Below are positions 9,015 to 10,400 of a stretch of DNA of 64,000 nt, in pieces. The notes under the pieces were generated by a model, which ran no database searches, was not told the DNA's origin, and worked only from the letters and a program-made list of their open reading frames with translations. Position 1 is the stretch's first letter. Every line of letters starts with the position of its first letter. The position numbers were made by a program, and so were the translations under genes. Location of the stretch: assembly GCF_988242995.1 (NCBI RefSeq), contig NZ_OZ547043.1, one strand, 5' to 3'.

Positions 9015-10400
9015 TTATTCAGCTGGCAGTGCTATGCGCCACGGAAGCAGTTCGCTGACCCGGTTGACCGGCCAGTCTGCTATGACGCCAGGCACATGGC
9101 GAAGGTAGCTTTCTGGATCCACGTCATTCAGTTTGCACGTCCCGATCAGGCTGTACAGTAGCGCTCCCCGCTCACCACCATGGCCAGAGCCGAAGAACAG
9201 GGTCTTCATCTTTTCACGCAACCAGCTTTCCAGGGATTTCAACAGCGGTTTCGTTTTTCGCTGACGTTCAGCAAGCCGCTGCTCTGCCGGCATTCCCCTT
9301 ATATCCGCCTCTATGGCGTACAACTGACCGATCTGCTCTAGGGCTTCTTCCGTCAGTGCTGACGGGATGCGGACGTGCACATCGTGGATCTTTCGGCGGG
9401 CATGAGCCCAGCAGGCAGCTTCCGTTATCCCACCATTGCGATACAGCTCGTTGAACCCGGCGTACGCATCCGCTTGCAGCACACCGCTGAAGCAAGCAAG
9501 ATGAGTCTGCGGATGGATGCCTTTTCTGTCCGGGCTGTAAGCGAACCTCACTGCAGGTGCCAACGCTGACCCGGCATTGCGGTCATCACGAACATACGCC
9601 CACAACCGCCCGGTCTTCGTCTTCTTATTACCCGGCAGCAGTACCTGGACCGGGGTATCATCGGCATGGAGTTTGCCGTCAGTCATGACATAGCCATGAA
9701 GCGCCTCTTCCAGCGGAGACAGCAGCCGGCAGCATGCATCCACCCAGCCCGACAGCAGTGAACGGCTCAGCTCCACACCTTGCCGGCCGTATATTTCTGA
9801 CTGGCAATACAGCGGGGTGTGCTCTGCATACTTCGAGGTCAGCACGCGGGCCAGCAGCCCCGGTCCGGCGATACCCCGCTCGATGGGCCGCGAAGGTGCA
9901 GGTGCCTGCACGATGGCATCGCACTGAGTACAGGCATGTTTTTCCCGTACCGTCCGGATAACCCGGAAGGCGCTACGCATCAACTCCAGCTGTTCGGCGG
10001 TATCCTCGCCCAGATAGCTCAGTGAACCGCCGCAGTTCGGGCAGCACGGCGCCGCAGGCAACAGTCGCTTTTCGTCACGGGGTAGTGATTCAGGGAACGG
10101 CTTACGGGTGCGGGTCTGACGCAACGGACGCTGTACTGCCGGGTCATACACCCTACCAGTCAGCGTATCGCTCTCTTTCTGAAGCCGGTTCAGATCGGCT
10201 TCCATTTGTGCGATACGGCGGGAGACTTTTTCGGAACGACTGCCGAAGTTCATCCGGCGGAGTTTATCCAGCTGCGCCTGCAGATGGTCTATTTCGCGCT
10301 CCCGGTTGCTCAGCTTTTCCTGCAGGGCGTGGATCAGCGCTTCCTGTTCGGCCAGGCGCTGTTTCAGCAGGAAGATGTCGTCAGAAGAGATGTCGTTCAT
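9015..10400 (-). CDS. IS66-family transposase TnpC, internally deleted (461 aa versus 512 aa in copy 2)
   Basis: Alignable along its length with the 30404-31942 ORF in this window but lacks 51 residues between …REKMKTL and FFGS…; Cys-rich zinc-binding region CCPNCGG…CTQC present. Confidence 0.8.
   Translation of the reverse strand: MNDISSDDIFLLKQRLAEQEALIHALQEKLSNREREIDHLQAQLDKLRRMNFGSRSEKVSRRIAQMEADLNRLQKESDTLTGRVYDPAVQRPLRQTRTRKPFPESLPRDEKRLLPAAPCCPNCGGSLSYLGEDTAEQLELMRSAFRVIRTVREKHACTQCDAIVQAPAPSRPIERGIAGPGLLARVLTSKYAEHTPLYCQSEIYGRQGVELSRSLLSGWVDACCRLLSPLEEALHGYVMTDGKLHADDTPVQVLLPGNKKTKTGRLWAYVRDDRNAGSALAPAVRFAYSPDRKGIHPQTHLACFSGVLQADAYAGFNELYRNGGITEAACWAHARRKIHDVHVRIPSALTEEALEQIGQLYAIEADIRGMPAEQRLAERQRKTKPLLKSLESWLREKMKTLFFGSGHGGERGALLYSLIGTCKLNDVDPESYLRHVPGVIADWPVNRVSELLPWRIALPAE

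Follow-up and report, generated by a model that had tools for sequence, protein, structure and literature searches.

Copy 1, the first of two IS66-family elements in the pheV island of a 64,000-nucleotide stretch of E. coli DNA (the window), is an ordinary decaying insertion sequence and a mobilisable deletion derivative of a well-known kind. We consider it very probable, as a whole explanation, that copy 1 is a degenerate ISEc8 in which one deletion at ACAGG left a dead TnpC, and that the deleted form spread together with an island module and was mobilised in trans once or more.

Two IS66-family elements and the deletion in copy 1

The E. coli pheV island in the window comprises tRNA-Phe (6647-6722) followed by a P4-type integrase gene (6920-8185). 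We assigned the island to pheV because the matching locus of another strain shows the same order of speC, yqgA, tRNA-Phe and integrase. Two IS66-family elements, copy 1 and copy 2, are located within this island, with the following features:

Copy 1, 8978-11266, minus strand: 2289 bp, ISEc8 with a 153-bp internal deletion, imperfect terminal inverted repeats
Copy 1 tnpC, 9015-10400, minus strand: ORF of 461 aa versus 512 aa, without ISEc8 residues 402-452
Deletion junction in copy 1, 9197-9201: one ACAGG retained
Copy 1 tnpB, 10450-10797, minus strand: 115 aa, IS66-family accessory protein, NCBIfam IS66_TnpB (E = 2.9e-35)
Copy 1 tnpA, 10794-11195, minus strand: ORF of 133 aa with a GTG start, NCBIfam IS66_ISRel24_TnpA (E = 3.7e-28)
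Copy 1 left flank, 8516-8977, plus strand: remnant of an IS110-family transposase gene adjoining the tnpC end, common to only 124 genomes
Copy 1 right flank, 11267-11301: CACTATTTTATCC..., leading to zinc-ribbon DUF7828 genes, common to 1758 genomes
Copy 2, 30367-32819, minus strand: 2453 bp, complete ISEc22-family element
Copy 2 genes: tnpC 30404-31942 (512 aa), tnpB 31991-32338, tnpA 32335-32754
Copy 2 counterpart of the lost segment, 30586-30743: 153 bp plus the second ACAGG

Elements of the IS66 family end in imperfect terminal inverted repeats starting with 5′-GTAAGCG. Both copies begin with GTAAGCG and finish with CGCTTAC, and the family repeat is thus present at either end of each. The genes tnpA, tnpB and tnpC follow each other in the IS66 order in both elements and match the NCBIfam profiles for IS66 TnpA, IS66_TnpB and transpos_IS66, respectively. 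The tnpB gene of copy 1 is apparently intact; for tnpA, PGAP calls a product of 126 aa in identical copies versus the 133-aa ORF found here. Neither copy shows the 8-bp target-site duplication of the family: the 8 bp beside copy 1 read CTTTATAT on the left and CACTATTT on the right, those beside copy 2 GCACATTT and ATAATTTT, in agreement with the earlier note, which had seen no duplication at either element. The IS110-family label of the left flank, which lies between the pheV integrase and copy 1, is the PGAP annotation of an identical locus; Pfam found no domain in the ORF 8628-8924 inside this remnant.

Further along the island, copy 2 sits at the border between the island backbone, here with CbtA/CbeA toxin-antitoxin genes and a DUF4942 remnant, and a capsule region that begins with a kpsF-like gene at 33568. 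Elsewhere in the window, the CbeA antitoxin domain of a 353-aa ORF (27899-28960) is confined to residues 249-348; it is preceded by a long N-terminal part without Pfam match, and the ORF may be fused or over-extended. The window also encodes an autotransporter of the Ag43/AIDA type (19203-22124) with ESPR signal, AIDA repeats, autochaperone and beta-domain, which is typical of such island backbones.

The earlier note had described a 153-bp in-frame deletion in copy 1 tnpC with ACAGG at both breakpoints. DNA and protein alignments, as well as the comparison with ISEc8, bear this out. If 8978-11266 is aligned with 30367-32819, the length difference sits where it had been placed, as a single clean gap of 153 nt in copy 1. 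The corresponding TnpC proteins align with one gap of 51 residues between ...REKMKT(L) and FFGS and are 89% identical elsewhere; the frame is kept, as had been stated. Copy 1 has a single ACAGG at the junction (9197-9201); copy 2 has two, at 30586-30590 and 30739-30743, exactly 153 bp apart. Due to this homology the breakpoint is ambiguous within 9196-9201, and 30591-30743, given in the earlier note as the deleted segment, is one of the equivalent parses. In ISEc8, the same pentamer is found at both breakpoints, in the contexts GAAGA-ACAGG-AAGTT and GTCGCG-ACAGG-GTCTT. The calculated probability of at least 5 bp of microhomology at a random deletion junction is ∼0.005, and the presence of ACAGG at the junction is therefore more than chance. 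Of the 284 positions of the Pfam profile DDE_Tnp_IS66, copy 2 covers 1-283 and copy 1 only 1-222. Since the catalytic domain typical of IS66 transposases is incomplete in copy 1 alone, the deletion lies in copy 1 and the short form is derived.

We next compared copy 1 with ISEc8, using as reference the O157:H7 copies labelled “IS66-like element ISEc8 family transposase” by PGAP rather than the ISfinder entry. Copy 1 matches these in two blocks, 99.4% identical over 1737 bp and 98.7% over 224 bp, which overlap by exactly ACAGG and are separated in ISEc8 by 153 bp. A composite ISEc8 built from two O157 loci measures 2442 bp, that is, 2289 + 153 bp, and encodes a TnpC of 512 aa. These sizes agree with the published element, in which L0015 (TnpC) has 512 aa and L0013 (TnpA) 133 aa (PMC2762410). 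Copy 1 is therefore nearly identical to ISEc8 without having its full length of 2442 bp or its 512-aa TnpC. By sequence, the true parent of copy 1 is ISEc8, and the proper comparator is accordingly this element rather than copy 2. The latter is ISEc22, based on the PGAP label “ISEc22 family transposase” on 100% identical copies elsewhere; with a nucleotide identity of ∼85% it is ruled out as the parent of copy 1. The same difference upholds the view of the earlier note that the two copies are not recent duplicates.

Distribution, flanks and movement of the deleted allele

The deleted allele, termed Δ153 below, was traced with a 45-bp probe across the junction, which allows no seeding on undeleted copies. 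The probe detected Δ153 in 2204 of 5426 complete E. coli genomes (∼41%), at 2391 places, 58 of them on plasmids, with a median of one and a maximum of three junctions per genome. Exact 461-aa proteins account for 3,584 blocks of the assembly collection in case of the window allele and for 11,152 blocks in case of the allele that retains W285. Full-length matches to copy 1 at 99.9% identity are present in many E. coli genomes, and the copies differ by less than 1%. The deletion is thus not private to copy 1 but an old, inherited allele; a single origin is part of the overall explanation that we regard as very probable. A literature search restricted to open-access text retrieved no paper describing this allele, and a search for IS679 and transposition of the family returned incidental mentions only.

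The sequences next to the Δ153 element fall into four classes:

Class A: left ...GAACAAAA (DUF6404 remnant, phytase-like esterase, often near fec), right CACTATTT... (zinc-ribbon genes); commonest among the sampled loci
Class B: left as in class A, right CCCGAAGAGG...; seven sampled loci
Class C (window): left ...CTTTATAT (IS110 remnant), right CACTATTT...; 124 genomes
Class D: left yehR with TGCCGTTC, right yehR with TGCCGTTC; 89 genomes

Classes A, B and C each have one flank in common with another class, meet their flanks precisely at the ends of the IS and show no target duplication. For the most part, the allele is located in a single island module. The right junction of the window, in which the tnpA end is followed by CACTATTT... 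and two DUF7828 zinc-ribbon genes, occurs in 1758 genomes. In the class B loci (L024, L025, L028-L030, L032 and L033), the right flank, again joined exactly at the IS terminus, is on the nanS/HNH side. This pattern fits rearrangement via the IS ends or recombination of one IS copy with another and, as far as the junction sequences tell, flanks have been exchanged at both ends of the Δ153 element. With at least three flank combinations of the same element across genomes, joined exactly at its termini, the later rearrangement suggested in the earlier note gains substance. An exchange of the left flank at the IS terminus would therefore explain the missing target duplication at copy 1. The ancestral left junction, as deduced from the empty site of strain B1172 (L005; ...GGTTATTTACACTATTT plus the IS end), was absent from all complete genomes searched, and the complete genomes likewise yielded no original insertion that keeps its target duplication.

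Class D differs from the island copies in being a canonical insertion. In 89 genomes, the listed ones including EHEC of serogroups O26, O103 and O111, the Δ153 element of 2289 bp lies inside the core gene yehR and disrupts it, bordered on both sides by the perfect 8-bp duplication TGCCGTTC (for example L008, 3802-6090, and L022, from O26 and O103 EHEC strains). All 60 yehR copies listed, out of the 89, are in one piece, contain the deletion and are 100% identical. The yehR and island copies share eleven SNPs in addition to the deletion relative to O157 ISEc8, and in the O103 strain RM8385 (CP028112.1) the two copies, which reside on the same chromosome, agree at all 2289 positions.

Potential helpers were counted with a query consisting of 202 bp of yehR flank and the first 259 bp of the IS. 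In FORC_028, CFSAN027346 and 8479, three genomes with the yehR insertion, this query matched 11-12 places each versus two Δ153 junctions each, indicating that other ISEc8-like copies are present as potential helpers. The ends of copy 1 are identical to those of ISEc8 copies, and the 35-bp end sequences are found at 100% identity in thousands of places. Hence, two features of a derivative that can be mobilised in trans are in place: both ends are intact, and the yehR copy represents a fresh insertion, marked by a target duplication, in genomes where ISEc8-like copies are candidate helpers. We conclude from these sequence comparisons that the defective Δ153 element has probably transposed at least once, by means of TnpC supplied in trans. 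Transposases usually show a cis preference, and the copy number of near one per genome, which indicates that mobilisation of Δ153 is rare, fits this behavior.

Alternatively, a full-length ISEc8 could have entered yehR and acquired Δ153 later, either from the island copy through gene conversion or by renewed slippage at ACAGG. The ACAGG repeats are present in every ISEc8, which makes recurrence mechanistically possible; EHEC genomes offer many ISEc8-like copies as recombination partners, the exact flank exchanges at IS ends show that copies do join rearrangements, and gene conversion could likewise produce two identical copies. However, an undeleted ISEc8 at yehR was found in none of the complete genomes: the best match had a coverage of 92%, and the yehR flank was present in 0 of the 12 matches listed. 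Moreover, the yehR copies listed are uniformly deleted and identical, and what they have in common with the island copies, the deletion and the SNPs, extends across the whole 2289 bp. In CP028112.1, a conversion tract would need to span the entire element from end to end. We therefore regard a later conversion or recurrence as unlikely and favor transposition of the already deleted element into yehR.

Function and decay of the shortened TnpC

The role of the lost residues was approached by conservation and structure prediction. A search of 1.84 billion representative proteins yielded 48,729 homologues of TnpC, and the 107 full-length proteins among the best 150 of these, representatives of separate 50%-identity clusters, were aligned. 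Residues 402-452 are the most conserved block of the protein (mean column conservation 0.63). We looked for relatives that naturally lack this segment, and it proved gap-free across the 107 diverse IS66-family transposases (gap fraction 0-0.01). Conserved positions within it are A410, Y413, G428, N434, N435, E438 (98%), G447, R448 and N450. In the whole of TnpC, the near-invariant acidic residues are D247 (100%), D311 (99%), E364 (97%) and E438 (98%), and R199 is 100% invariant.

A sequence search of the PDB for IS66 TnpC gave nothing relevant. In an AlphaFold model of ISEc8 TnpC (pLDDT 92.5, pTM 0.82), D247 is placed on the first strand of an RNase H-like core and D311 just past the fourth strand. 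The fifth strand (325-328) is followed by an all-helical stretch (331-426), the start of which is marked by C330-x-x-H333, and E438 is part of helix 435-448. Structurally, the model is matched best by ISCth4 (PDB 6xg8), a transposase of the IS256/Mutator family, which likewise has an RNase H-like DDE core and an alpha-helical insertion ahead of the glutamate helix. In contrast to these similarities in fold, ISCth4 shows only 12% sequence identity and belongs to another IS family; it served solely for judging what the deletion removes from the fold. According to the model, the deletion takes out three core helices, including the E438 helix, together with the strongest motif of the family. It would thus remove the end of the all-alpha insertion domain and the helix bearing the DNNxAE motif. 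By conservation, model and analogy, E438 is the probable third residue of a DDE triad (D247, D311, E438); E364, which is 97% conserved and kept in copy 1, is an alternative candidate for this position.

The shortened protein has also accumulated substitutions. Copy 1 TnpC carries R199C, W285R, D457G and L488P (ISEc8 numbering). Polarised with ISEc22 as outgroup, R199C, D457G and L488P are derived in the Δ153 lineage, while W285R is additionally derived in the island sublineage that contains the window. Few synonymous changes accompany these four, the counts being small, and the pattern looks like relaxed constraint. Because E438 and the DNNxAE helix are lost and R199 is replaced, we infer that the 461-aa TnpC is very probably catalytically dead and the element non-autonomous. 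This extends the proposal of the earlier note that copy 1 is probably not autonomous, since the 51 lost residues form the most conserved stretch of the family, contain E438 in DNNxAE and are absent from no diverse relative.

To follow the fate of the element, ten loci were sampled without selection for an intact protein. In two of the ten (L003 and L010) tnpC is frameshifted, three (L006, L007 and L012) are cut by IS1, and in another two (L009 and L013) tnpC is intact and the element is cut downstream of it. As a separate observation, the locus of strain 203740 that corresponds to the pheV locus of the window (L003, 8292-10907) contains an ISCro1-family IS66 element inside tnpA of the Δ153 element, next to the frameshifted tnpC; through this nested IS66-family insertion the same copy is decaying further.

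The 461-aa ORF is open in many genomes, and PGAP annotates it as an intact “IS66 family transposase” without a pseudogene flag. One could therefore ask if the short TnpC is retained as a dominant-negative inhibitor which, through its leucine-zipper and zinc-finger parts, would attach to full-length TnpC or to ISEc8 ends and thereby dampen ISEc8-type transposition. The open frame, the intact LZ_Tnp_IS66 and zf-IS66 domains and the preserved N-terminal catalytic parts are compatible with such a role, as are the many assembly-collection blocks with exact 461-aa proteins given above and the presence of the allele in 41% of complete genomes. If true, it would help to explain why the frame persists in ∼40% of complete E. 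coli genomes. The substitutions, however, are mostly non-synonymous, affect invariant sites such as R199 and resemble decay, and five of the ten sampled copies are frameshifted (two) or cut by IS1 (three). With copies less than 1% apart, youth and hitch-hiking alone predict an open frame, and EHEC genomes bearing the allele still have many ISEc8-like copies. Because both the kind of substitutions and the many copies degraded further indicate decay, we give a retained inhibitory function very little credence and maintain that the short TnpC is the product of a decaying gene.

It is even less probable that the 51 residues are dispensable and copy 1 encodes an active transposase that makes it autonomous. 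The insertion into yehR shows that the element has transposed, and D247, D311 and the conserved E364 are still present. On the other hand, the most conserved block of the family is never missing in the 107 relatives, three core helices including that of E438 are removed in the model, and R199C strikes a fully invariant residue. In addition, Δ153 remains at one copy per genome (maximum three) versus ∼20 places per genome for ISEc8-like ends. Finally, the idea that the short form is normal and that the 153 bp were inserted into copy 2 draws on the bare length difference and is ruled out, since only the long form matches the Pfam and NCBIfam profiles in full and the segment is present in ISEc8, ISEc22 and all 107 aligned relatives.

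Proposed history and comparison with known elements

Based on these observations, we propose the following course of events. An ancestral ISEc8 would have lost, once, the 153 bp between two ACAGG direct repeats in tnpC, most likely by slipped-strand or microhomology-mediated deletion. The resulting lineage would then have gained more substitutions that harm the protein, R199C at an invariant position among them, and the allele would have spread with an island module that carries zinc-ribbon genes on one side and the phytase-like esterase on the other. In the pheV island of the window, the left flank was presumably swapped exactly at the IS terminus. Because its ends, tnpA and tnpB are intact, the Δ153 element should be movable if a full-length ISEc8-type TnpC is provided in trans, and the yehR insertion in EHEC genomes would represent at least one such event. 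Copy 2 is a separate, intact ISEc22.

These results bear on annotation, since a protein that is called intact, and is encoded by ∼41% of the complete E. coli genomes, is predicted to be without a conserved catalytic helix. In genome annotation and surveys of IS activity, the 461-aa form is better treated as a defective ISEc8. The 45-bp junction provides a handy marker of one widely shared island module, and the disruption of yehR by Δ153 is a possible lineage marker for an EHEC clade. The yehR copy is also natural evidence for the movement of an IS66-family element with a broken tnpC, which hints at an action of TnpC in trans on ISEc8 ends; this is a modest point, in a family of which the mode of transposition has been little investigated.

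Among known elements, copy 1 is closest to ISEc8 (L0013-L0015 of the EDL933 LEE, common in EHEC O157:H7), with which it shares the terminal repeats and the order of tnpA (133 aa), tnpB (115 aa) and tnpC. It differs from ISEc8 in its length of 2289 instead of 2442 bp, in the 461-aa TnpC lacking residues 402-452, in four derived amino acid changes and in the PGAP product name, which is only “IS66 family transposase” for the allele versus “ISEc8 family” for ISEc8. ISEc22, represented by copy 2, belongs to the same family and has the same gene order, 89% TnpC identity and ACAGG at the homologous positions, whereas the nucleotide identity of ∼85%, the strongly diverged tnpA and right-end regions and the intact 512-aa TnpC set it apart from copy 1.

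Non-autonomous deletion derivatives moved in trans are known from Ds/Ac of maize, P-element derivatives and the MITE-like IS derivatives of bacteria. Like these, Δ153 combines intact ends with a defective transposase gene, and it resembles them in having inserted anew, with a canonical target duplication, in genomes where its relatives also occur, full-length copies among these being candidate helpers. Unlike them, its deletion is small and in frame, so that the element is nearly full length and keeps both accessory genes, and one clear mobilisation of Δ153 is seen among more than 2000 genomes.
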